Positions 2,671-48,722 of a DNA stretch of 48,722 nt are shown here, piece by piece; positions within the stretch are counted from its first letter, which is position 1; every line of letters begins with the position of its first letter. The stretch is from Paraspadella gotoi (taxonomy: Eukaryota > Animalia > Chaetognatha). Where the stretch lies: the NCBI GenBank assembly GCA_051294375.1, contig CM119264.1, positions 20,127,564 to 20,176,285 of the forward strand, written 5' to 3'. Both the position numbers and the translations under genes were made by a program. The notes under the pieces were generated by a model that saw only the letters and a program-made list of their open reading frames with translations, was not told where the DNA came from and did no database searches.

Positions 2671-4233
2671 TTAGTGGGATCTGCTTTTAGCAGATCCTGA
2701 CTCTATAATTCACTTTGTCGTTCCGTCGGTCCGCCCCCTTAATCTTGTCGAGCATTCACTTAAATCATGTCAGAACATCGAATTATGATAAAAAATCTTA
2801 AAAGCATAAGGATCGTCACAATCGCATAAGAAAAATATGGATTGACGACAAATTTTGACACTAAAAAATACAATTTGAGAAAAGAAAATTAATTATCTAT
2901 AAACAGAAAGAAAAAATTATATTTATAAATTATAAATTAAAGTTACAGTTTCTGAAAAAAAAGAAAAAAACATTTTCATTGTCAAAAAATAAATTAATCA
3001 GCAGACGCAGCCCCTTAGGAAAAAACACAAAAAAAACCTGATGTTGCGATAGCAAAATGATAACATGCACGAATGCGATGCCTAATTTTACGAGTTCAAT
3101 CCTATTTCAATTTTTTTAAAATAAAAACCCAGAGAGAGAGAGAGAGAAAAGAAAGAAATCAAAAGGCAGCAGCAGAAGCAGCAGGAAAAAAGAGAGATAA
3201 AGAATAAGCCCCTGCAGAGCCAGCTGCAGACTCAAAAGGCAGCAGCAGAAGCAGCAGGAGAAAGAGAGGAAAAAGAATAAGCCCCTGCAGAGCCAGCTGC
3301 AGACTCGTTTTTTCCCTATGATTATGTTTATGAATCAGTGATGAGGGAAAAGAGAGAGGGAGAGAGACATGTAATTAAAAGAGAAAAGAGAGAGAGAGAA
3401 AGAAATATGAAAATAAAAGAGTAAAAATTTGTTTGTTTTGATAAAATGTAAACAAAACATATTTATAACTATCCAGACTCAATTTTAAGCACATCGATGA
3501 TGAGAGAAGCTGTATATAAATTTTCAGTTTCATAAACCCAAATTTAATCATAAAAAAGGCGATCTATAATTTGGACCGCTGACGACAACAAACGACGACG
3601 ACGACAACGACGACGACGCCACTTATGGGCAAAAGCGTTACAAAGTATTTGTTCGCAAACGCTAAGCGATTGCGACGATAATTATACAAAAAAATGATGT
3701 CCGTCCATCCGTCCGTACGTCCCACCTTAGCAAAAAGCTCCAATAACTCGTGATTGGGTGGTTGGATTGAAATGAAATTTTGTGTGGGTGGAATCGTGCG
3801 AGTGGAAATGAGTTCAAATGAAAAAAATATGAGTCACATTTACTTGAATCTTTTTACTTATTTTAACCCATAATTACTGGAATTAACCATAATTGAATTA
3901 ATAGATTAAGATGAAATTTTGTAATATTGGATGGATAGATTGAGTTGAAAAGTGTGTGAAGAAGCTAGATATAAAGTTTTGACGGAATTGTGGCAGTGGA
4001 AATGAGTTTAAATGGAAAAAACATAAGTCACAATTACTTGAATCTTTTTATTTATGATTACTAATAAATGTTTTAATTAATTAATTAATTAATGTGAAAA
4101 AATGATGCAATTTAAAAAATGATGCAAGTTGAAAAAAATGATGCGAGTTGAAAAAATTATGCGGGTTCCAAAAAATTTTTAAAAATATTGTGATTTATCA
4201 TGGCAGATCCGACATTGTTTGCTCAAACTTGTT
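2671..4233 (+). mobile_element. HINE H-A, full length, hosting an H-B copy
   Basis: 5' subTIR plus inverted copy (TTAGTGGGATCTGC...GCAGATCC), (GTCC)n microsatellite, ~120-bp central repeats, 3' subTIR GCAGATCCGAC plus stem-loop GTTTG-CT-CAAAC; T-run insertion site. Confidence 0.8.
2790..3681 (-). mobile_element. HINE family H-B
   Basis: subTIR ATCGTCGCAATCGC at both ends, (GTC)n microsatellite, 3' CTTATGCTTTTAAG hairpin plus T run; empty site visible in the H-A copy near 38600, no TSD. Confidence 0.8.
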
Positions 4234-4880: not shown

Positions 4881-5012
4881 CTGACATAAAAATAGGTAAA
4901 GCAATTAAAAAATCGTTACAAACAATATAAAAATTATCCATTCATTTAAAAAATAAGCGGCTAAATTTTACTTTCGACGACAGCGATCTTTTGAGAAACT
5001 GCTTATTTTTAA

Positions 5013-6559: not shown

Positions 6560-6910
6560 AGTAAACTATCTCAGCCCTGACATTGGACTGGCTTTGGTGG
6601 TTTAAGGCGTCCTTTACAATTACAAGACAATAACATAGCAGGACCCTACAATCATTCAAACAAGGCTCTCTCAGTCTTGTTTATTCACACCCAGAGTACC
6701 CGGCTTCTCTATCAAATGGTCTAAAGTTTTAAAGTATATTTAATTTGTATAAAAGGAACACTCTATGACAACGGGGGAACATTAGTGACCGTGAGGGGAT
6801 TGAACCCGGAACTCAGGGTTGGTGAAGAAGTACTTTGCAGCCCAAGCCAATCGGACAAGCTGAGTTTTACCAAGCTATACGGGAGGCGAATTTAGGATTC
6901 GCCACAACTC
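6560..6910 (-). mobile_element. Degenerate element: leader hairpin + tRNA-like head + family A body with decayed twister
   Basis: Hairpin GGCGAAT/ATTCGCC near 6885-6903, B box GGTTCAATCC near 6800, family A homology about 6567-6716; twister 6567-6629 has GA changed to AA and other lesions. Confidence 0.55.
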
Positions 6911-7707: not shown

Positions 7708-7948
7708 TGAAGAGACAGTAATAATTATAATTGTTAAGAGTTAATGACTGAATCATTCAATATTAGCAGTCTCTGAGCTTCGAATCAGGATGTAACACTG
7801 TGTTAACAGGCGGGTTAAGCGCCCTGTCCCTCTTAACTGCTAGGCGACCACCAGGCTAGAACCACAAACCTTTGGGTTGGGAGGCAAATGCCTTGCCTCC
7901 TGTACCAATGGCCGCTGATGAACGGTTGGTTTATTTTAGTCCACCATA
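7708..7948 (-). mobile_element. Family B tRNA-twister element, diverged copy
   Basis: Colinear with 46596-46814; twister 7764-7842 has an intact P5 (TAGCAGT/ACTGCTA) but a damaged T1 (CAG/TCG). Confidence 0.75.
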
Positions 7949-8953
7949 CATCCCCCTCCCCTAGAGATAAGTCTGTTTGCGTTAGGCGTGTGCCAAAGTT
8001 GCCAAAGTTTCTCGATTTTCAAATGAGGTCTCGGATAATATGGGAGGCCTAAAAAAGATGTTAGGAACAATCGCCGTTTTAGAATAGAAGCTGATCGCTG
8101 GCCGTGCTACCCTGCCTTGAAGGATTTTTGGGCACACCTTTCACGTTCATAGTTCATATGTGTTAAAGTAAGAAAGGTTTTTTGTTGTCCAACTTAAATT
8201 TAATTAGTTGTAAAAGTTAGAAAGTTAATTCAAATAAATTTCACAAGATCCCAACTACCTCTGAGGCTCTGCTGCAGCATTTACAACATGCGGAGGAGGT
8301 GGTAGCTATTAAAATAAAGATTATATCTTTTGAGTGCTGATGGTACTATAAAAGGTTCCTATAAAATTAATATTCATTAACAAGCCCTTTAACTAATTTC
8401 ATAACCTTTTTTTGAAAATGCAAGTATGTCTACACTCCTGGAGGATACTTCTTGTACAGTTTTTATAAATTGCTTAATTATATACAAAAATATAATATCT
8501 AATTAATTAGATAGTAAGACACAGTTTATAAAACTAGATAAGATAAAGTTTTTGGAAATCTTAAATTAAATTGACCAACAACTTCTCATGGGAGCCTCCT
8601 TTTGAAGGATTCTGAAAATTTATTCCACACCACATCAATTAAAAAAAAAGAAAGTTATGTTATCAAAAATAGCTTTAAAATAATAGTAATAAATTAAATA
8701 AAAAATTTTTACAGATATCATGATTACATTATACGAGGATGTGGACAAGGCTTGCTAGCTGATAGCTTTTCATTAACAAAGAAATAAAATCCTTATTTTT
8801 TGTTTAAAATATGGCCATAATAAATGATACCAAAAACAATTACTTTTAACCAAGGTGTGCCTAAATCTTTGTAAGATTCTTCATGTACAGACTGCCTGAA
8901 GGATAAAAATATCTTTTTATTATTATTATAGAATAAATATATATTTTATCATA

Positions 8954-10115
8954 GCGAGGAAAACCTGCTATGTCAATTATCTTTGTAAAGAGTGATGAGG
9001 GCCTTAAACACCAAAGCCTGTCCAAAGTCAGAGGGCAAGCATATGCTATTTATTAATGAAGGATAATTTTTATATTGTGTGTATAAACCAATTCAATAAA
9101 ATCAGCTCCTTGTATTTTGTTATGCATAGTGCGGATAACAATAAGTAATTCCGCACGATCTAATCTTAAGGGAGTGGTCTTTTCATAACAATTGAAACAT
9201 TCTTTGAAATATTTTCCACTTTCAATTGATAGGGAAGGCAGGTACTCTGTGAGAGTGAATAAACAACTGTGAGAGAGTCTTGAGTTGAAAAGCGTTGCAA
9301 GGACCTGCTATGTCATTATCTTGTAAGAAGTGATGGAGGGCCTTTAAACCACCAAAGCCTGTCAAAGTCAGGGGCAAGATTACTTATTTTATTAAATGAA
9401 TGGTACATTTTTAATTGGGTTGTACCATATTTCATAAAATTCAGACTCCTTGTATTTGATGCTATGCGGAGTACAATAATGTATTCCCCCGATCTAATAC
9501 TTAAGGGAGTGGTCTTTTCATACATATTGCAAACATCCATTTTGAATTTTTCCACTTCATTGATAGCGGAAGCCAGTACTCTGGGATGTGAATAAACGAG
9601 CTGTGAGAGAGTAGTCTGATTGAAAGCTTGCAGGGACCATGCTATGTCCATTACTTGTAGAGAGTGATGGAGGCCGTTAAGACCACCAAAGGCCTGTCCA
9701 AATCAGGGCAAGATACGCTTATTTATTAAATGAGATGGATAATTTTTGGTAATATATGGTTGTTAACCAATTTTCATAAAATTCAGCTCCGTTGTCATTT
9801 TGAGATGCTAGTGCGAGGTACATAAGTATTCCGCGATTCTAATACTATAAGGAGTGGTCTTTTCATACAATTGAACACATTCTTTGAAATATTCCATCCA
9901 GTTGATAGAGGAAGCCAGGGTACTTTCTGGTGAGTGAATAAACGAGATCTGTGAGAGAGGCTGATTGAAAGCTTGCAGGGATCCTGCTAGTTGTCATTAT
10001 CTTGTAAGATGTGGAGGCCCTTAACCTACCAAAGCCTGTCAATAGTCAGGGCGACAAGATAGCTTATTTATTAAATGAATGGATGAATTTTTTTATATTG
10101 TTGTTACAATTTCAT
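8954..10115 (+). repeat. Head-to-tail array of ~340-bp units (about 3.4 units, 4 twister motifs), retrozyme-like
   Basis: Twister motifs at 8978-9043, 9317-9381, 9652-9715 and 9998-10061 (spacings 339, 335, 346); each copy has different small indels; the array is absent from the opposite foldback arm, so it is an insertion. Confidence 0.85.
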
Positions 10116-11469
10116 GGATTATTGATCAGAATAAAGGCAATCAGCCTGAGTTAACTAAGAATATATAATATCTAATAAATACGATAAAATATCCTATATA
10201 AAATAGCTAAACTTCATTTACTTTAAATCTTAAGTTTTGGTTTTCTTTTATAAATGTTTGGTGTATTATAATTTTATCATATTTTAATTATATCTTACAA
10301 TTCTAATTTTCCTACTGCATGATATGTAAAGAAGGTGATTAACTGGATTTATTGGTTTATTAATTTTTTGATTTACATGAATTGAGTGGGGTCAATTAAT
10401 TAATTGATATGTAGTGTGGTTTGATTCTCTTTTACAGATTGTGTTGAATGATGAGGAATATCTGCATCATATATAGTAGATCAATATGAATTGTACTATT
10501 AAAGAACTTAATAAAATATGATTTCATAATATAATCACTGAACTCATATATCAATAAAAATTTTTTTATTATATCCATTTGGTCGGTCCATCAATCCGCC
10601 CACTCAGTCTGGCACTCAGTCACTTAATCATTCAAAAAATCGGAGATTAGATAAAAATTCTTGACAAAAAAGTTAATATCCGTCTCGTCCTGTGTCTATT
10701 CCAATAACATTAATGAAAAAAACAATTTAACAATGTTACAAATCTTTTATACTAATCTTAACCTATAATTATTTTAAGTAATCTACAAATTGGAGTAGAT
10801 GAGAAATAAATTTTTGGTATGGGTAGGAAAGTGTGTGTTGATTAGGCATGACGATATAAATAGGTTAAAAAAAATGATGCAAATAAAAAAATGAGGCAAA
10901 TTAATAAAAATGAATGCAAATTAAAAATGATGCAAGTTAAAAAAATAATGTGAGTTAAAAAGTATGATGTAATTTAAAAAAAATTGATGGACGGACCCGA
11001 GATTGAATAAACTATTTAAAAACAAATCACCTTTAAAAGTGGTTTATGTCACAGGTTTTCAGAGGCATTATTTCTCTCCTCACTGGAGTCTGGACGTTTC
11101 TAACGGTTAAATAATTCGCGATATCTTTTATCTTTCGCTATTCAATATTTTTCTCTTGCGGGAGAACAGGGCAAAGGCAGCAGCCAGAAGTCCACGGCCA
11201 CGTCGTGTCGTTGACCATGACGCGCGTAAATTGATGTTCTGATGATTAAGGTAAATGACCACCCAGATTCAGGTGTGGATGCGCTGGATCAACAAAATGG
11301 ATTATCAAAAGAATTTTTTTACACTGATTTATCTAATATTAAATGATTAATTTACTGAAACTCATAATTTTATCAAGTGTTTATAGTACATATATTGATT
11401 TAATCAGTATGAGTACAGATATTCTATTCCTTCAAACAACTGTAAAATGAATAAGTCAACCAAACTATA

Positions 11470-11900
11470 GAGATGTTTACAAGGTGTCTGCATGACAATA
11501 CGTTACAAGGTGTTTGGCGGATTCGCAGATGGATGGAGAAGTGGTACATTAAGGGTAGGTGGATCAGGGAGATCTGACAGAGGCTAAAATGACGGGCAGC
11601 TGGTGAAGCATGATGCAGGCCACGCTGAGAGTCGGGGTGTCAAAGGAGTAGCAGTACCAGCAGTGTACTTGTCTGACGCTACAGTGTGCGCATGGATAAA
11701 GGACGTTTGTGGGCAAAGTTTGTATAGTTGAGAGGACTGTTAAGATGGATGGGGCATATGGGCATGACTGTGATGAAGCACTGGGCGTGGCGGAACACTT
11801 AGCGTCTCGAGCGCTAATTAAGCGGACCGGCCACTAAGATCGCGCTTAGAGATTAGAGACGCGGTGGCCGAAAAGACGGAGCTGACTAAGATTTGAATTT
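11470..11900 (+). pseudogene. Degraded 3' fragment of an RTE-like non-LTR retrotransposon
   Basis: GC-richer insert in the right foldback arm; encodes LRWMGHMGM (RTE consensus LRWxGHxxRM) near 11740-11770, followed by a GRP-like remnant; many frameshifts. Confidence 0.45.
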
Positions 11901-13452
11901 TTTTCCCCTTTTTGAAACTTATAGTAAACTGGAGCCATAGAAGTAAAAGTATTAAACTACTACTACCCCTTTTACTCCATGTGTGTACATTAGCAATACG
12001 TTTGTTGAGTTTCGCAAGAGATGGTAATTAATTATTGGCATACACAGAAACAGCGACCAGTGCTAAGTTAATAATATATTAATTAATAATTAACCAACTT
12101 GATCAATTAATCACCAAATTATAAACCAATAATAAAATAATTACTTTTTTTATATATCATCAGCAGTGGGGAAATTAAGAAATTTAATCATTTGGAATAT
12201 ATTCAAATTTATAATAACTCTCATAACAATTTTTTAAAAACCTAAAAACTAAGCTTTAAAGTATATGGAATTTAGTTATCTTATTACAGGATATTTTATT
12301 ATTTATTAGATATATTATTCTAGGTTTGACTCAGGCTGATTGATTTATCTGATTTATATCATATTATGATAAAAATATATTTATTTATAATAATATAATA
12401 AGATATTTTATCCTTCAAACAGTCTGTACATGAAGAATCTACAAAGATGTAGGCACACCTTGGTTAAAAGTAATTGTATGATTAGTCTATCATTTATATG
12501 ACCATATTTTAACAAAAATAAGGATTTTATTCTAATTGAAAGCTTTATCAGCAGCAAGCTTTTTCCACATCCTCCAGCATATTGGAAATGCCTTTACAGG
12601 TGTATAAAAGAATTCTGTTCAAAAAATTTTAATTAAAAAAGTAACTACAAGTATTTTGCCAGCTATTAAAGCTATTTTTGATAACATAACTTTCTTTTTT
12701 TTTTAATTGATGAGGCGTGTGGAGATAATATTTTCAGAATCCTTCAAAAGAGGCTCCCATGAGAAGTTGTTGGTCAATCAATTTAAGATTTACCAAAAAC
12801 TTTTATCTTATCTAGTTTCATTAAACTGCCTTACTATCTAATTAATAGCTATATATTTTCTATATAATTAAGCAATTATAAAAACTGTACAGAAGTATCC
12901 TCCAGGATGTAGACATACTTGCATTTTCAAAAAAAGGTTATGAAATTAGTTAAAGGCTTGTTAATGAATATAATTTTATAGGAACCTTTTATAGTACCAT
13001 CAGCACTCAAAGATATAATCTTTATTTTAATAGCTACCACCTCTCCAGCATGTTGTAATGCTGCTGCAGAGCCTCCAGAGGTAGTTGGGATCTGAAAATT
13101 TATTTGAATTAAATTCATATACTTTTACAACTAATAAATTTAAGTGGGCACAAAAACTTTCTTACTTTAGACACAATGAACTATGAGTGAAAGGATGTGC
13201 CAAAAATCCTTCAAGGCAGGGTAGCACGGCCAGTGATCAACTTTTTAAACGGCGATTGTTCCTAACATCTTTTTTTAGGCCTCCACATATTATCCGAGAC
13301 CTCATTTGAAATCCGAGCAACTTTTGGCATTTGGCACACCCTACTGTTGCGTCTCTTCAGTGAATTGTTATTGTTGGTGTAAAGTTCATCACCAGGTTGA
13401 GGCAAATCGCCTGAAAGTGTTTGTCTGCTGTGTCAGAAATCGAGCTCACCAA

Positions 13453-13683
13453 TGAAGAGACAGTTATAATTGTTACAAGTGACAGAACCGTTCAATATAA
13501 GCAGTCCCTGAGCTTATGATCAAGGCGTAACACCGGTGTTACAGGCAGGTTTAGCGCCCCGTCCCTCTTAACTGCGAGGCGACTACTAGGCTAAAACCCT
13601 GGACCTTTGGTTTTGGAGGCAAATGACTTGCCTCCTGCACCAATGGCCGCTGATGAACGGTTGGTGGATTTTAGTCCACCATA
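13453..13683 (-). mobile_element. Family B tRNA-twister element, diverged copy
   Basis: Colinear with 46596-46814; twister 13501-13575 has L4 changed to TCATAAGC and TAA changed to AAA. Confidence 0.75.
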
Positions 13684-15613: not shown

Positions 15614-15784
15614 GAGAGAGCAAAGAATTTTGAATTTAACGATTTTTTATTAGTAGTTGGACATGTTTCGGCTTGCTTATTTCAAGCCGAAACATGTCCA
15701 ACTACTAATAAAAAATCGTTGTTAAATTCAAAATTCTTTGCTCTCTCTAATACCTATGAACAACGAAAAAGAAAGGATTAACGC
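15614..15784 (+). mobile_element. Penelope-like pLTR remnant with inverted duplication and 15-bp TSD
   Basis: Palindrome 15610-15675/15683-15751 centred on hammerhead halves AAGCCGAAACATGTC; direct repeat ATGTCAAAATCATTA at 15599-15613 and 15785-15799. Confidence 0.7.
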
Positions 15785-19140: not shown

Positions 19141-19430
19141 TGTAGTCGGGCATTGCCTAGGTTCACCCCGCCTATAAGCATGACTCTTTCAGTTGTGAGC
19201 CGGTGGCTCATTGAGTAAAGCCATCAGCTCATGACCACTAGGTACCAGGTTTAATCCCAACCCGGTACCTACCCTGCGGGAAGAGTGAGGACGGCCGTAA
19301 GCCGCCTTGGGGGTGTGGCAAACCCTTAAGCCTGGTTCCAAGCCTTGGACCCGTTCCATGTCTGCTAGAGGGGGTTATAGAAGTTATGGATAGTCATCCT
19401 CAGCCAACTTAGCGCCTTATCCATACTACC
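19141..19430 (+). mobile_element. tRNA-derived short element, family C (leader hairpin + tRNA-like head + twister + 3' hairpin)
   Basis: Leader stem TGTAGTCGGG/CCCGCCTATA; head about 19197-19269 with TGGCTCATTGAG and GGTTTAATCC boxes; 3' stem TATGGATA/TATCCATA. Confidence 0.7.
19276..19354 (+). ncRNA. Type-P5 twister ribozyme motif, family C
   Basis: GCGGG-AA-GAGT-GA-GGA-CGGCCG-TAA-GCC-GCC-[P3 TTGGGGGT-GTGGCAA-ACCCTTAA]-G-CCTGG-T-TCC-AA-GC-CTTGG-A-CCCGT; T1 GGA/TCC, P5 GCGGG/CCCGT; predicted cut 19298/19299. Confidence 0.8.
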
Positions 19431-31039: not shown

Positions 31040-31221
31040 TGAAATTGGTACAACCAATATAAAAATTATCCATTCATTTAATAAATTAGCTATCTTGCCC
31101 CTGACTTTGGACAGGCTTTGGTGGTTTAAGGCCTCCATCACTCTTACAAGATAATGACATAGCAGGTCCCTGCAAGCTTTCAATCAAGACTCTCTCACAG
31201 TCTCGTTTATTCACTCCCAGA
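31040..31221 (-). mobile_element. 5'-truncated monomer of the ~340-bp twister repeat (family A)
   Basis: Reverse-complement match to the 8954-10115 unit; same 3' terminus ...ATTGGTTGTACCAATTTCAT; flanked by AGATATAAT (31032-31040) and AGATATATT (31219-31227), a possible TSD. Confidence 0.75.
31091..31153 (-). ncRNA. Type-P5 twister ribozyme motif, family A, intact copy
   Basis: TATCTTGT-AA-GAGT-GA-TGG-AGGCCT-TAA-ACC-ACC-AAA-G-CCTG-T-CCA-AA-GT-CAGG-G-GCAAGATA: P5 TATCTTGT/GCAAGATA, T1 TGG/CCA, T2 AC/GT, P4 CCTG/CAGG, P2 ACC/G(A)GT, conserved GA and U^AA; predicted cut between 31128 and 31127. Confidence 0.85.
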
Positions 31222-31789
31222 TATATTATAGCAACAGCCGGGCATGTGATGCCCATTGCGAAGGGTCATCTCACTGTAAGCTCTGGGGGCATCTGACACT
31301 CAGAGGTACCGCCTGTTAATGGCGTGGTTAGACGGTTACCCGAGGACGGTCTCGCTTTACAAACGCAGAGGTGTGAGGTGTGAGGGGGTGTGAATATACC
31401 GCCACAATATCATATACATTCACAGACAACGAACAAAATAACATTGTGAGGAAATGGGTAAAAATGAGTAAAGAATTAATTAAGAAAGAACTACATAGAG
31501 ATCAAATTAGAGATTCCTTAACCGTTAAAAATTAACCGTTAATAACGGTTAAAATTTTTTTTAACTTAACCGTTAATTTTTGAATTTTAACAGTTAAATT
31601 CGGTTAAATTTTATTTTTTCCAATTTAGATATTTTGGTAAAAAATATTCTGTTTCCTTTAACTTATTCTGTTTTTCGAGAAATTTTTCTTAAAACAAAGT
31701 GAAACGTTCAAATAAGACACGTTTTTTATATAGTTTTTGTATTCATTATTTATTTATTCAGAGGAAAAACAAAGTTTGTTTTTGTTTAC

Positions 31790-32512: not shown

Positions 32513-34779
32513 CCTCGTGTCCGTTCGCGAGTGACACCAAAAAATGCTTACCATTTCCCATTGGATAAATATTTTCTAAATTTTCTTTCCTAATTCTATA
32601 GTAAAGTACTGAACGTTTATTATATTTTAATTTCATAAGATTAATTTGATATTTACTTATGTAAAACAACCTTTCTTTTCTGGTCATCCAATTTCATTTT
32701 CAGTAAAAAACTGAATCTTTTAAAAAAAGAAAATCATAAATTAATTGCTCAATACTCATTAATTATTAAAAATTAATAAAATTCATTTACGCCCTTAAAT
32801 TAAGAATTATCTGAGAATCTTTACGTTATAAAATAATTATTCAAGACAGTCAAGAACATGCTCAGGATAGAATTTTTTTCTAATTGGACAAATTGTATAA
32901 AGAAAACATAAGATTTACAATTAAAAGAATAAATAAAAAATCATTACTGAGAAATTACTTACGATAATTCAGATACGCCATTGATTAGACCATTAATAGG
33001 AATTTCTTATAATGTAAATTTAAAAAAAAATTAAATCAAGAACACGTCTAAATTTTAAAAGTGCCTGAATCTAGATTCAGATTTTCAAAATATGATCAGA
33101 ACCATATTTAATGGAAATTAATTACACAGCAGGTGGATCAAGTATGTTCAAAAGGTTAGTAATAAAAATCGAGAGACTCGAATATGCAAATGAGATTAAT
33201 GCGTCATTGTAAGGTTGAATATAAAGCAAAAAAAAGCATAAACAATTTATTAATTATTATTTTTTAAAAAACAATTAATAAATATGTTTTAATTTGTTTT
33301 GATAGTTCTTTATGGGAATTCTGTATAATAAAAAATATTTTAAAAAACTAATTTATCTAACAATATTAACATAATTATTGGATATAAATATATTTGTATT
33401 ATTTTTTTTTATTTATCTTTATTATGAAATAGTTTTTTTTTAATTTTGAAAAAATATTTAGCAAAAATATAACTTTTTTAATTGGTTCAGGCAGTAGAAT
33501 ACAACAATACTTTATAGTCAGATTCTGAAAATGAATTGGGAAAAGATGATTTTTGATACTTCTTTTTCTGACTAATTTTTTTTATATAGTTTCCTTACTT
33601 ATTTTAATTTGTTTTAGGTTAAAAGTGGTTGACACCTATCCCACTAATATTCTTTGCTGAATTTATTCAGCCAATTTCATATTATAGTCATTGACTCTTT
33701 TTGACGAAACCTAATTTCTTTTTTTACGATTTTTGTATTAATCGACTTTGTCGTCCCATAACTTTTGAACGCTGAGTTCGATTTTTCGAGACTTGAACCA
33801 ATTGCTTCATCTTTCAATAAGTTTTATTTTATATTTCTATATCTTTGTAAAATTCAGCCATCCAATACGGTTTTTTTTATGAGAAAATGTAGCTATTTTT
33901 TTGCGCCTTGAGCCAGAGCAGTTCCTTGCAAGCTTTCAATCAAGACTCTTTTACTCTTTTTCAGTCTCGTTTATTCATTCCTAGAGTATAATTTTGACAT
34001 AATTATATTTGCAAGTACAAATTTTTTTTTTCCAAATATTTTGACTTGCGCTGGAAAGGAAAAAATATGAAGAATCCTTGCTATTAAAGTATTTTAATAT
34101 GATTCAAGTAAACAGTACCAAAATGGTTGTCAGCAAAACAAAAAACTGATTGAACTGGAGCTCTGTCTCAATGGCTTTTTGCCATTGGTTCACTGTCTCA
34201 CTCTCTTTCAAGATTGAGTTACAAAAAACCTTCATTGCAATAGTATTTTTATATGCTTTTTATTGTTAAATATTGTTTTTTTATCCTACATGCTGATAAA
34301 ACTATACATACTAGCTTTTTATTATGATTTTATAATATTTATTTAAATTTTTATATAAGATTAATAAGTTTAATAAGTTTTTATTAATTTAAAGTATTAC
34401 TGTGAAACGTTAATCTCATTTGCATATTAGAGTAACCCGATTTTTATTACGAACCTTTTGGCTTTGTGGACAAAAATTCGTTCTATCTCAAATCTCTTAT
34501 TTTGGTACCAAAGTAATATTCCCAAGGTTTTGTAAAGATATTCCAACCCTTCCTATAGGAAGCTGGCCAGGCTACCTAAAATGGTCTTTTTTCGCCAATT
34601 TTACTGTGTAAGATAAAAAATTAAATATAGAATAGTAAATGAAGTAAACACGAAATGAAACTTATACATAAAAAAGGTCAAGTAGTTCTCCAACTAATGA
34701 TATACTTATGAATTATATTTATTAAATATTTAAAGTATAGTAAAGATTATTTTGGTGTCACTCGCGAACGGACTCGGGG
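32513..34779. mobile_element. Tc1/mariner-like non-autonomous element, ~30-bp TIR, TA TSD
   Basis: TA|CCTCGTGTCCGTTCGCGAGTGACACCAAAA and TTTTGGTGTCACTCGCGAACGGACTCGGGG|TA. Confidence 0.7.
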
Positions 34780-38478: not shown

Positions 38479-39140
38479 TTAGTCGGATCTGCTTTTAGCA
38501 GATCCCGACTCTATAATTCACCATCGGTCGGTCGGTCCGTTGGTCTGCCCCCTGAATCTTTTTGGGCATTCACTTACATCATGTCAGAACATCGAATTAT
38601 GATAAATTATGTAAAAAAAAATGTCCGTCCGTCCGTCCCACCTAAGCAAAAAGCTCCAATAACTTGTGATTGGGTGGTTGGATTGAAATGAATGTGTGGG
38701 TAGGAAAGTGTGTGATGAAGCTGGATATAAAGTTTCGATGGAATCGTGCGAGTGGAAATGAGTCTAAATGGAAAAAACCTAAGTCACATTTAGTAAAATC
38801 TTTTTACTTATTTTAACCAATAATTACTCATAATTGGATGGATAGATTGAGTTGAAAAGTGTATGAAGAAGCTAGATATATAGTTTTGACAGAATCGTGC
38901 GAGTGGAAATGAGTTTAAATGGAAAAAACATAAGTCACATTTACTTGAATCTTTATTATTTATAATTACTAATTATTAATTAATTAATGTGAAAAAATGA
39001 TGCAATTAAAAAAATGATGCGAGTTGAAAAAATGATGCGAGTTGAAAAAAATATAAAAAAATATTGTGATTTATCATCTGATTAGCTGATTACGGCTTAA
39101 TTATTGTAGGCAGATCCGACTTTGTTTGCTCAAACTTGTT
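38479..39140 (+). mobile_element. HINE H-A
   Basis: Both termini; inserted in a T run of the Kolobok-like host. Confidence 0.8.
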
Positions 39141-41183: not shown

Positions 41184-43194
41184 TTAGTCGGATCTGCTTA
41201 TCAGCAGATCCCGACTTTATAATTCACTTTGTCGGTCCGTCGGTCAGCCCCCTCAATATTGTCGGGCACACACTTATATCATGTCAGAACATCGAATTAT
41301 CATTAATTATGCAAAAAAAAAACGATGTCCGTCTGTCTGTCCGTCCAACCGTTCGTCCCACCTTAGCAAAAAACTCCAATTACTCGTGATTGGATGGATG
41401 GATTGGTATTACATTTTGTGTGTGGGTAGGAAACTGTGTGATTGAGATGGATATGAAGTTTCGAGGGAATCGTGCGAGTGGTTTAAATGGAAAAAAAAAA
41501 ATATATTTCACTATTTGAACGCCAATTTCTCATGAGTGGATAGGGCAATTGACTTGAAATTTTGTATGATGGTAGGAAAGTGTGTGATTGAGCTGGATAT
41601 AAAGTTTCGATGGAATCGTGCGAGTGAAATGAGTTAAAATGGAAAAAACAAAAGTCATATTTACTTGAAGTATTTTTACTTAAATTTACTCATAATTATT
41701 ATGTTTATTAAAAATTGGATAGATAAATCGAAATTGAATTTTGTGTGTGGGTAGGAAAGTATGTGATAAAGCTGGATATAAATTTTTGATGGAATAGTAG
41801 GAGTGGAAAAGAGTTCAAATTAGAAAACCAAAGAACACATTTATTTGAATTTTTAAAGTTTCTCTTTCTCTATCTCTCTCTGATTGATTGATTGATTGAT
41901 TGACCAAATTATGCAAATTGATAAAAATATACCAGTTGACCAAATTCTTAAAGTTGACCAAAAATTATGCCAGTTGACCAAATTCTTAAAGTTGACCAAA
42001 TTATGCCAGTTGACCAAATTCTGCAAGTTGATCAAGTTCTGCAAGTTGACCAAATTATGCCTGTTGACCAATTGCTGTACCAAATTATGCCAGTTGACCA
42101 AATTAGGCCAGTTGATAAAATTATGCAGTTGACCAATTATCGCGGTTGACCAAATTATCTTAATTGATCATTATGTCAGTGACCAAATATGTCAGTAGAC
42201 CAAATTATGTCAGTTGACCAAATTATGCAAGTTGATTAAATTATGCAAGTTGACCAAGTTAGCTTATTACCACTTAATTATCAATTGACCTCGAATTTTG
42301 TATGTTAGTAGAAAGTGTGTGATTGAACAGGAAACCAAGTTTCGATGGAATCTTTTGAGTGGAAATGAGTTTAAATGGAAAAAAAACAAAAAACCTTTTT
42401 TACTAATTGATTATGATTCTTTTTTCCTTTTATATTAAATGTAAATGCAGGATGTATTAATAAATCAAATAATTAATCAGTTAATTAAGCAATTAGTCAA
42501 TGAATTAATCAATAATTAATTAATCAGTCAATCAATCCTCCATCCGTCCCACCTTAGCAAAAAGTTCCAATAACTCGTGATTGGCTGGTTGGATTGGAAT
42601 TAAATTTAGTGTGTGGGTAGGAAAGTGTGTGATAAAGCTGGATATAAAGTTTCGACGGAATCGTGTGAGTGGAATGAGTTTAAGTGGAAAAAAACATAAG
42701 TCGCATTTACTAAAATATTTTTACTTATATTAACCAATAAGTACTCTAATTAATCATAATTGGATGGATAGATTGAGTTCAAATTTTTTGTGTGGGTAGA
42801 AAAATGTGTAACGATGTTGATATAAATTTCGGTGGAAACGTACGAGTGGAAATGAGTTTAAATGAAAAAAATATGAGTCACATTTACTTGAATCGTTTTA
42901 CTTATTTTAACCCATAATAGATTGAGATGAAATTTTGTGAGCGGGTAGGAAAGTGTTTGAAGAAGCTAGATATAAAGTTTGATGGAATTGTGCCAGTGGA
43001 AATGAGTTTAAATGGAAAAAACATAAGTCACATTTACTTGAATCTTTATTATTTAGGATTACTAATTTATGATTACTAATAAATGTTTTAATTAATTAAT
43101 TAATGTGAAAAAATGATTCAATTTAAAAAAAATTATGCAAGTTGAAAAAATGATGCAAGTTCAAAAAAATCCTAAAAGCATAAAGATCGTCGCA

Positions 43195-43226
<32 letters not shown>

Positions 43227-44090
43227 AGAAAGAGAGCAGAAAAATGAGAATAAGGATCGTCGCAATTGCAAAGAGAGAGAGAGAGCAGAAAAATGAGCAT
43301 AAGGATCGTTGCAATTGCAAAGAGAAGAGAGAGAGAGAGAGAAAAGAAAGAGAGAGAGTCCGGAGATAAAATTAGTGAAAAAAAGTTGTTATTTTACTCT
43401 CTGAATAAAAATACTTAAAATACTTACAAAATACATAAAATTGATAAAATTATTATTCCGATAACATTGTTTAATCACATGCAATATATCTAGTAAGGCG
43501 GGCCAAAATTGAACACTTTTTATAACTTTTAGTTCTCTCAAAAAAATTTCTTTTTCCTTCTACTACTAAATCGATTTTCAATGTAACTTTTGAATTAGTT
43601 CATTGGGTTGTTGCACTGAAGCTTTTAAATATTTATTAATATATAATAATTATATAAAGTTTTGACGGAATTGTGCCAGTGGAAATGAGTTTAGATAGAA
43701 AAAATATAAGTCACATTTACTTGAATCTTTAATATTAATGATTACTAATAAATGTTTTAATTAATTAATTAATGTGAAAAAAATGATGCAAGTTAAAAAA
43801 ATCTTAAAAGCATAAAGATCGTCGCAATTGCATAAAAAAGAGAGAGAGAGAGAGACGAGAGAGAGAGAAGGAGATATAAAATAAAATAGAGGATTTTTGT
43901 TTGTGATGATAAAATGTAAACAAAACATATTTAATAACTGTCCTAACCCAATTTTAAGAACATCGATGATGATAAGTTGAATATAAATTTAAAATTAATT
44001 ATTACATATTAAAATTAATTAATTAATTAATCGATTAATTAATTAATTAATTATCGTAGGCAGATCCGACATTGTTTGCTCAAACTTGTT
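41184..44090 (+). mobile_element. Long composite HINE H-A
   Basis: Both termini; expanded central repeats; contains an 18-bp minisatellite and tandem H-B-like ends. Confidence 0.8.
41898..42290 (+). repeat. ~18-bp minisatellite (GTTGACCAAATTATGCCA)n
   Basis: About 20 diverged units visible; explains the repetitive ORFs at 41853-42149. Confidence 0.9.
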
Positions 44091-46121: not shown

Positions 46122-46595
46122 CTGAAGCAACGATAAAAAAATAAATAATTAAGGAGCTATGGCTATAACGTGGAGACATGTGTGATGCCCGGGGTGTGAG
46201 ACATCTCACGACAGCTGGCGCTCAGGGATTTGGAACTGCAATAACATCGATGGAACAATATTTTTTTACTGTCTTTGTATATGTAATAAAAAATAATCTC
46301 TTTTTCAAAAAAAAAAAAAATGCATAAGTGTCATTAATTGAATTTCTTTTATACTGAGTTCGGACTTGAATCTTAACCCCTTAATTGATCCTCCGATTGT
46401 TTTACAAATTTTTTTAATTTTTTATAGCAGAAGAATCGTTAAGGATTTTTCTATCTTTTGGATTGTATTTAGTTTTGCTATGTCGAAAAACATTTGTATG
46501 GGAAGCAACCGAAACAATAAGTCATGTTTGCTCCGCGCCCAAACAGTTAAAATTCAACTACATATAAATATTTGCACTCCTGCAAAAGTTACAAT

Positions 46596-46814
46596 TATGG
46601 TGGACTAAAATCCACCAACCGTTCATCAGCGGCCATTGGTGCCGGAGGCAAGTCATTCGCCTCCCAACCCAAAGGTCCGGGGTTCTAGCCCGGTGGTCGT
46701 CTGGCAGTTAAGAGGGACGGGGCGCTTAACCCGCCTGTAACATGGTGTTATAGCCTGATCCGAAGCTCAGGGAATGCTTATATTGAACACTTATCAATAA
46801 TTACTGTCTCTTCA
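46596..46814 (+). mobile_element. tRNA-derived short element, family B (leader hairpin + tRNA-like head + twister)
   Basis: Hairpin GGTGGA-CTAAAA-TCCACC; tRNA-like 46629-46701 (GCGGCCA/TGGTCGT acceptor stem, A-box-like TGGTGCCGGAGG, B-box-like GGTTCTAGCC); shared end CTGTCTCTTCA; two further copies in the window. Confidence 0.8.
46703..46778 (+). ncRNA. Type-P5 twister ribozyme motif, family B, best copy
   Basis: GGCAGTT-AA-GAGG-GA-CGG-GGCGCT-TAA-CCC-GCC-[P3 TGTAACA-TGG-TGTTATA]-G-CCTGA-T-CCG-AA-GC-TCAGG-G-AATGCT; T1 CGG/CCG, T2 GC/GC, P4 CCTGA/TCAGG; predicted cut 46727/46728. Confidence 0.85.
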
Positions 46815-47335
46815 CAATGATCAACCTAGTGGGTTTTTTTTATGGTGGTCTTGAGAGAGTACTGTAATTTATAATTTATAATTTCTAGTATAAGCCAAAA
46901 TTGTATAACAATCAATTCGTACTTTAAAATTGTATATCTTAAAAAAAAATTGAAGCTGCAATAACTTGAAATTCCGTACAATTACAATTTTGGCCTCAGG
47001 GCATTATGTCCCATATAATACAGTATCTAAATTCATTTGGATATTGCAGTATGGGGCGAATTAAATATAACACTCAACAGTATAGTACTTGTAACCGAAT
47101 TACATCAATCTCGGGCCATTATTGAATACACAGTGGTAACAAGAATGTAAAGACTTTTTCATATCGTCTACTCATCTTTGGAAGGGTCCTATGGAAGGTA
47201 TACTTCATAAATGAAATAATTGTTAAAACTAAATTTTTCAGATATATCATTAAGTACAAATAATCGAGGGGACTAATAATAATTTTTCCTATGGGGGGTA
47301 AGTTTTAAGTCCGAACCCTGTAGTAATATCCTTAT

Positions 47336-47511
47336 GTTATTATCCTTTCTTTTTCGTTTAGTAAAAGGTTTGAATTTACTTCATCGGCGTTAACAGTTTT
47401 AACTGTTTTACTGTTAACACCGATGAAGGCTTGAAAACAAAACCCGTAACATGTCCGTTTTGTATTAAAAAATAAAAATCGTTACAGAAATTAATTTAAA
47501 CCTTTTTATTA
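47336..47511. mobile_element. Penelope-like pLTR remnant, inverted arrangement, 14-bp TSD
   Basis: Decayed hammerhead CCGATGAAGGCTT...CCGTAACATGTC, inverted repeat CTTCATCGGCGTTAACAG/CTGTTAACACCGATGAAG, TSD AGTAATATCCTTAT at 47322-47335 and 47512-47525. Confidence 0.65.
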
Positions 47512-47874: not shown

Positions 47875-48114
47875 TTCACAATGATCAACCTAGTGGGTTT
47901 TTTTTATGGTGGTCTTGAGAGAGTACTGTAATTTATAATTTATAATTTCTAGTATAAGCCAAAATTGTATAACAATCAATTCGTACTTTAAAATTGTATA
48001 TCTTAAAAAAAAATTGAAGCTGCAATAACTTGAAATTCCGTACAATTACAATTTTGGCCTCAGGGCATTATGTCCCATATAATACAGTATCTAAATTCAT
48101 TTGGATATTGCAGT

Positions 48115-48722
48115 ACTTTCCTACCCACACACAAAATTCAATTTCGATTTATCTATCCAATTTTTAATAAACAAAATAATTATGAGTAAATTTAAGTAAA
48201 AATACTTCAAGTAAATATGACTTTTGTTTTTTCCATTTTAACTCATTTCCACTCGCACGATTCCATCGAAACTTTATATCCGGCTCAATCACACATTTTC
48301 CTACCATCATACAAAATTTCAAGTCAATTGCACTATCCACTCATGAGCAATTGGCGTTCAAATAGTGAAATATATTTTTTTGTTTTTTCCATTTAAACCA
48401 ATTTCCACTCGCACGATTCCTTCGAAACTTCATATCCATCTCAATCACACAGTTTCCTACCCACACACAAAATTTCATACCAATCCATCCATCCAATCAC
48501 GGGTAATTGGAGTTTTTTGCTAAGGTGGGACGGAGACGGACGGACGGACGGACGGACGGACGGACGGACGGAGGACGGACGGACGGACAGACGGACGGAC
48601 GGATATCATTTTTTTTGCATAATTTATCATAATTCGATGTTCTGACATGATATAAGTGTGTGCCCGACAATATTGAGGGGGCGGACCGACGGACCGAAAA
48701 AGTGAGTTATAGAGTCGGGATC
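48115..48722 (-). mobile_element. HINE H-A 5' part (cut by the window edge)
   Basis: Close reverse-complement match to about 41200-41760. Confidence 0.75.

Follow-up and report, generated by a model that had tools for sequence, protein, structure and literature searches.

A predicted twister ribozyme next to a likely Pol III promoter in the LTR of a very small Paraspadella gotoi retrotransposon

A repeat present in three copies in a 48,722-nt window of the Paraspadella gotoi genome (the window being the whole stretch of DNA analysed here) is very probably, judging from its anatomy, the LTR of a tiny non-coding LTR retrotransposon (TRIM) of ~600 nt. The element would be of the Helenus/TRIMp3 type and unites two oddities of TRIMs, an internal promoter, likely for Pol III, and an LTR ribozyme, here a predicted twister. 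On balance we favour the interpretation that it is an LTR retrozyme propagated by way of a predicted circular RNA. The window is AT-rich (32% GC) and crowded with repeats, three families of which carry the same compact twister variant; the candidate LTR belongs to family B, and families A and C serve mainly for comparison (Table 1).

Table 1. Location of the family B features and of the compared repeats in the window
Feature	Position	Strand	Basis or remark
Family B solo LTR, TA...CA ends	46596..46814	+	alignment, flanking 4-nt duplication, empty-site contig
Left target-site duplication, CAAT	46592..46595	+	
Right target-site duplication, CAAT	46815..46818	+	
Leader, putative U3, 33 nt	46596..46628	+	U3 role from LTR layout
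tRNA-like stretch	46629..46700	+	A-box-like ~46637, B box 46681-46691, 44 nt apart
Predicted twister, P5-permuted variant	46704..46777	+	descriptor match, covariation; cut predicted 46727/46728
LTR 3′ part, U5-like	46778..46814	+	
Family B copy, 5′ LTR of full-length element	13453..13683	-	twister T1 decayed
Primer-binding site, tRNA-Trp type	13440..13452	-	directly after LTR end of the 5′ LTR
Internal region, 5′ part	13344..13452	-	13350-13359 complementary to LTR 3′ end
Nested DNA transposon	7983..13343	.	splits internal region; 5,361 nt, ~1-kb terminal inverted repeats
Internal region, 3′ part	7949..7982	-	polypurine tract 7951-7962 just before LTR
Family B copy, 3′ LTR of full-length element	7708..7948	-	twister partly decayed
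Family C, unrelated repeat	19141..19430	+	tRNA-like stretch (~19195-19266), then same twister variant
Family A, dispersed copy	31040..31222	-	lacks a tRNA-like part; same twister variant, included in the covariation alignment

LTR anatomy of the family B repeat

The three copies of family B range in size from 219 to 241 nt and are 86.5–89.4% identical in pairwise comparisons of ungapped columns. Their alignment upholds the claim of an earlier, sequence-only reading that all three share both ends, and that reading was also right that they lack a poly(A) or simple-repeat tail. Contigs of three sequencing runs (13,835, 2,464 and 785 contigs) cover the copies, a fourth run giving 0, and their summed depth exceeds the flank depth by factors of hundreds to thousands, a quantity that is not a copy number and supports only the description "high-copy". 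The loose ends of the contigs concentrate at 46593–46596 and their flanks are unrelated (agreement 0.39–0.52), so that the 5′ end of the repeat is fixed.

The solo copy is bordered on both sides by the exact 4-nt target duplication CAAT; an exact 4-nt duplication arises by chance at 401 of 48452 sites in the window. In one contig of another sequencing run (X2), the two flanks of this copy are joined with a single CAAT between them. The contig is the empty site, from an allele or paralogue of the locus, and the ends of the solo copy and its 4-nt duplication are therefore fixed. A tRNA SINE starts at its tRNA head and has a LINE-type tail and a duplication of variable length. With its 33-nt leader, fixed ends, 4-nt duplication and missing tail, the family B repeat is not an ordinary tRNA SINE, in agreement with the sequence-only reading. 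At the 3′ end of the solo copy, 241 nt (46811–47051) are repeated with 100% identity at 47875–48115, the second occurrence being bounded on its left by a 10-N gap and starting with the last four letters of the LTR; this duplication is likely an assembly artefact.

The other two copies lie in the same orientation and are the LTR pair of one element, composed of 231 + ~133 + 241 nt when a nested transposon is left out and the single example of its kind (n=1). A stretch starting with TGG follows directly 3′ of the 5′ LTR, where TGG within 6 nt is expected at 3924 of 97324 sites (4.0%) in the window. Eleven of its 13 letters are the same as in the printed tRNA-Trp primer sites of the wasp Gypsy-32_NVi and of Helenus-2_SyJa, a comparison made by eye with Fig. 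S2 of PMC10886601. At the other end of the internal region, a polypurine tract of 12 purines ends 2 nt before the 3′ LTR, and G-rich purine tracts are found at 162 of 97324 sites (0.17%) in the window. The internal region, ~133 nt without the nested insertion, also has 10 nt complementary to the 3′ end of the LTR (duplex −13.7 kcal/mol), a match attained by 14 of 1724 background windows (0.8%).

The transposon that splits the internal region, presumably Mutator- or hAT-like, has a 9-nt target duplication with one indel. Its terminal inverted repeats are 94.5% identical, compared with 86.5% for the LTR pair, and this lesser divergence agrees with the required order of insertion. The paired LTRs agree in three letters that most of the family lacks, at the positions corresponding to 46643 (4–13% of depth), 46658 (0.2–9%) and 46691 (under 5%, unlisted); all three places are CpG sites, which makes this weaker support for the pairing. 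The outer target duplication of the paired element matches at three of four letters (7.6% by chance), and the 86.5% identity between its LTRs does not exceed their identity to the solo copy (89%). A Pfam search of 9 of the 26 window ORFs of at least 100 aa gave 0 families and hence no helper RT.

The sequence-only reading had regarded the copies as monomers of SINE-like anatomy. The primer site after the 5′ LTR, the purine tract before the 3′ LTR and the 4-nt duplication around the solo copy, none of which that reading had included, point instead to LTRs. A Helitron or MITE reading of family B was also tried and rejected, as the repeat has no terminal inverted repeats and shows the 4-nt duplication, primer site and purine tract instead. 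The hairpin reported as conserved in the leader is real (7 bp at 46598–46617, fold z −3.44) and is intact in two of the three copies, being broken in the 3′ LTR. Retention of the leader had been taken as a pointer to a circular template, an argument that falls away if the leader is U3, because LTR-type reverse transcription would regenerate it on a circular template or any other. Tandem or permuted copies, which would have accorded with that argument, were sought in contigs of the other runs, and none of the 15 joints listed of 39 connects the end of the repeat to its start; within the window, no tandem family B copies were found.

The tRNA-like stretch and the predicted twister

The tRNA-like stretch comprises a 7-bp acceptor-like stem, a T-arm-like stem, a B box with one mismatch to the consensus and a degenerate A box called by eye. 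Its middle is an 8-bp hairpin instead of D and anticodon arms, and for this reason no isotype can be named. The stretch is degenerate, a possible tRNA derivative, and the Gly-like identity that the sequence-only reading had assigned was rejected, since the anticodon stem fails to pair. ARAGORN predicted 0 tRNA genes in the window, and Rfam, run on the window and on the solo copy, the 5′ LTR and family C, made no tRNA call for families B or C. We consider the stretch a likely internal Pol III promoter on the evidence of its boxes and stems. A Pol III terminator is absent 3′ of it: the 309-nt, 173-nt and 219-nt pieces of the unit are free of T4 runs, save for one copy-specific run where the 5′ LTR has its B box; 47 of 2614 background windows of 370 nt have no T4 run.

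A twister-like fold begins 3 nt after the tRNA-like part, with its predicted cut 27 nt after the tRNA-like end, close to where the sequence-only reading had placed them. The solo copy has stem P4, both pseudoknots (T1 and T2) from loop L4, the adenines of the cleavage site and, below P2, the conserved G, residue roles that follow in part PMC6154101. In each of the three families P1 has 2 bp and P2 is a bulged stem of 3 bp, compared with the full P1 and 4-bp P2 of the canonical ribozyme; P1 has been described as dispensable (review PMC6154101). Within family B the predicted fold is present in all three LTRs, in decayed form in the paired element. Contig loose ends, which are blind to RNA ends, show no pile-up at the predicted cut among 18 rows listed of 544.

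Rfam twister models (Twister-P1, -P3 and -P5) applied to the whole window and to the solo copy, the 5′ LTR and family C gave no match for families B or C, and the family A copy scored 25.8 bits with Twister-P5, under the cut-off of 37.6. Rfam hammerhead models did not match family B. A descriptor search of the real window returned five matches, namely the solo copy, the 3′ LTR, the family A copy and two AT-rich places that are likely chance; ten simulated windows returned 14, two of them with full T1, so the descriptor alone is little proof. A search pattern designed on families A and B picked up the third family, C, at three mismatches, and the differences of family C are compensatory.

The comparison of families is more telling. 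In an alignment of seven rows, which represent three families and from which the structure itself was derived, both partners change in 8 of the 15 named pairs, and pairing holds in 85.6% of 104 cells as against 72.2% after shuffling (0 of 500) and 19–51% when the alignment is slid. Such both-sided changes occur in each of T1, T2, P2, P1 and P4 over the three families with all rows kept. For T1 the paired share falls to 70% of cells, owing to decay in both members of the LTR pair. Where P3 and P5 are broken in the solo copy, most other copies in contigs of the other runs have the pairing letter. Taken together these patterns suggest that the twister of family B is probably a working ribozyme.

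The last ~10 nt of the LTR can pair either with the catalytic strand of the twister or with the internal region. In the solo copy the pairing with the catalytic strand was equalled by 2 of 1000 shuffled tails; it is weaker in the 3′ LTR (7 of 1000, pairing probability about 0.3) and the 5′ LTR (37 of 1000, probability 0) and absent in family C (151 of 1000) and family A (962 of 1000). This distribution, strong in the solo copy, weak in the paired element and absent in the other families, does not establish the LTR end as a general "off switch" of the twister; that it may act as a switch in the solo copy is speculative. The fold of the solo copy also includes an alternative hairpin that spans the predicted cut site.

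Two degenerate patterns for the compact variant matched neither metagenome contigs (0) nor viral contigs (0), and a 15-mer scan of the viral contigs gave 12 loci, all of them chance matches of 15–19 nt. A Penelope/hammerhead reading of the minus strand was rejected, a complete core being absent by eye.

A proposed circular template and its rivals

We lean towards the full circular RNA route as the mode of replication. Pol III, initiating within the 5′ LTR at its tRNA-like part, would read through into the 3′ LTR, and the twister would cut in each LTR to give a ~370-nt monomer without a terminal repeat. A host ligase such as RtcB, a role described in part in PMC7229834, could close the monomer into a circle. 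A Gypsy-type RT, primed by tRNA-Trp, would then run round the circle and so rebuild both LTRs, the leader included, after which a helper's integrase would insert the DNA and so produce the 4-nt duplication. A Pol III terminator in the LTR would halt transcription within the 5′ copy as well, and the ribozyme would take its place; an LTR can hold a cutter after the promoter without that penalty. A model of cutting, circularisation and reverse transcription has been proposed for the plant LTR retrozymes, for which it also explained solo LTRs (PMC4918200).

An unlikely alternative, though one that accommodates all the LTR hallmarks equally well, is that the same TRIM uses its twister merely to form 3′ ends. 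The 5′ copy would often stay uncut, and the template would be a linear RNA with a terminal repeat of ~99 nt, which extends from the tRNA-like part through the first third of the twister; it would be copied by ordinary strand transfer and need no circle. A short R is made from Pol III ends in Cassandra (PMC10886601), and pairings able to block the fold exist, both in the hairpin over the cut site and between the LTR end and the catalytic strand. However, the two LTRs are identical at insertion, so silencing the 5′ copy alone requires a switch that depends on context. The context available works the other way, as the internal region 3′ of the 5′ LTR would draw the LTR end off the catalytic strand, and activity of the 5′ copy is therefore favoured.

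We regard it as improbable that the element is a plain TRIM of the Helenus type and its twister-like sequence an inactive motif or a passenger. The missing Rfam match for family B and the non-canonical P1 and P2 would be expected of such a sequence, but compensatory changes in T1, T2, P2 and P4 over three unrelated families would not, nor would the pairing letter that most other copies have where the solo copy breaks P3 and P5, and a tRNA-like part without a following Pol III terminator would be left unaccounted for. Least credible by far is a tRNA-headed SINE or a non-LTR tandem retrozyme like those of Schistosoma, which has in its favour that the schistosome repeats (PMC6765202) also place a ribozyme behind a tRNA-like part close to the 5′ end, and that the two-LTR element was seen once only, but which has against it the fixed TA...CA ends, the exact 4-nt duplication with its empty site, the missing tail and the lack of a tandem joint among the 15 listed of 39, and which would require the primer-like start (4.0%), the purine tract (0.17%) and the LTR-end complement (0.8%) all to be chance around one insertion.

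Relation to known elements and neighbouring repeats

Family B lies close to two groups of described elements. Helenus/TRIMp3 elements (Kojima 2024, PMC10886601) are likewise non-coding, shorter than 1 kb and built of two LTRs with a primer site and purine tract; they have a tRNA-like stretch inside the LTR (a degenerate one in family B), occur as solo LTRs and, in animal families, make a 4-nt duplication. The resemblance is closest to Helenus-2_SyJa and Helenus-2_SyUm, in the Trp-type primer site and the start of the LTR, and TA...CA ends as in family B are found in at least four wasp LTRs of Data S1 of that paper. In contrast, the tRNA-like part is followed there by a T-run and in family B by the twister-like fold. 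What is new in family B relative to Helenus/TRIMp3 is this predicted P5-permuted fold 3 nt past the tRNA-like part. The word "twister" occurs 0 times in the main text of PMC10886601, which names ribozymes only in reference to plant retrozymes, and no twister was seen in the portions of its Data S1 that we examined or at the places returned by motif searches.

The LTRs of Helenus-2_SyJa and Helenus-2_SyUm from wasps (Data S1, PMC10886601) show by eye what looks like a type III hammerhead 3′ of the tRNA-like part, in the position of the family B twister. They account for two of eight occurrences of one core motif in Data S1, a by-eye count from searches that miss matches broken by line ends. These wasp elements have T4 runs in the internal region, also by eye, and Pol III read-through therefore need not be general. 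The apparent hammerheads of both LTRs show loop-loop complementarity and go unmentioned in the main text of PMC10886601.

The plant LTR retrozymes (Cervera 2016, PMC4918200) are the second group. They also have a ribozyme in both LTRs (a predicted one in family B), a primer site, a purine tract, a 4-nt duplication, solo LTRs and no coding region, and the same cut-and-circularise cycle is predicted for them. They differ in having a type III hammerhead and a tRNA-Met primer instead of a twister and a Trp-type primer, and the family B element is smaller and has a likely tRNA-like internal promoter. The Pol III hammerhead repeats of Schistosoma share with it the combination of Pol III promoter and self-cleaving ribozyme (PMC6765202). 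Unlike family B, these repeats and other animal non-LTR retrozymes are tandem, carry a type I hammerhead, lack primer site and purine tract and are linked to Penelope-like elements (PMC6765202, PMC7229834, bioRxiv 10.64898/2026.07.22.740005). Non-canonical twisters, the T-variants, have been described in Perere-3/RTE LINEs (PMC8501958), where they mark the 5′ end of a coding non-LTR element, whereas that of family B is P5-permuted and lies inside an LTR. The literature searched, with most subscription journals, Repbase and Dfam outside it, held no report of a twister in an LTR or TRIM or of ribozymes in Helenus.

The LTR retrozymes described so far come mainly from plants and have type III hammerheads, and the animal retrozymes described are tandem, non-LTR and based on type I hammerheads. 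It is possible, and we propose it tentatively, that ribozyme-bearing Pol III TRIMs are an unrecognised and convergent class of animal LTR retrozymes, each a cassette of Pol III promoter, ribozyme and ligase that would make circular templates for a Gypsy-type RT, and that their twister variant is undescribed and missed by Rfam. This proposal builds on the predicted twister in two unrelated families of the window and on the hammerhead seen by eye in two published wasp Helenus (PMC10886601); the difference in ribozyme class from the plant LTR retrozymes points to convergence. If the circular route is correct, the family B element would be a natural counterpart of the engineered twister-based circular-RNA cassettes mentioned in PMC7229834, and its high copy makes the circular-template model of LTR retrozymes testable. 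That three families of a single 49-kb window contain the compact variant suggests an undercount by Rfam of the twisters in eukaryote repeats.

Family C is laid out like family B, with 44 nt between its boxes and about 9 nt between tRNA-like stretch and twister, and BLAST detected no similarity between the two families. Its ends are LTR-like, with five of six letters inverted; a target duplication was looked for at 19141..19430 and not found. Behind it lie a 12-nt tandem repeat and, in inverted orientation, 23 nt of the family A 3′ end.

Family A has no tRNA-like part or clear primer site. It forms a tandem array at 8960–10120 (+), just inside one terminal inverted repeat of the nested transposon, with units of ~330–345 nt that each contain the same compact twister variant; the array is a candidate twister-based tandem retrozyme. 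The many indels in the array may be sequencing noise. Dispersed copies of ~185 nt lie at 31040–31222, 6566–6695, 4910–4958 and 33914–33990, all on the minus strand, and one of them ends at the same letters as the array. Just upstream of the first of these is a GC-rich, structured-looking stretch (31230–31400, minus strand).

Two near-perfect AT-rich palindromes (15643–15716 and 47362–47429) gave spurious Rfam matches below cut-off (mir-2797, 23S-methyl) and are probably MITE-like. A further repeat family, with short tandem subrepeats and AG microsatellites, is present in many copies, including those at 3700–4050, 38620–38990, 41340–43730 and 48110–48530, and we take it to be Helitron-derivative-like.
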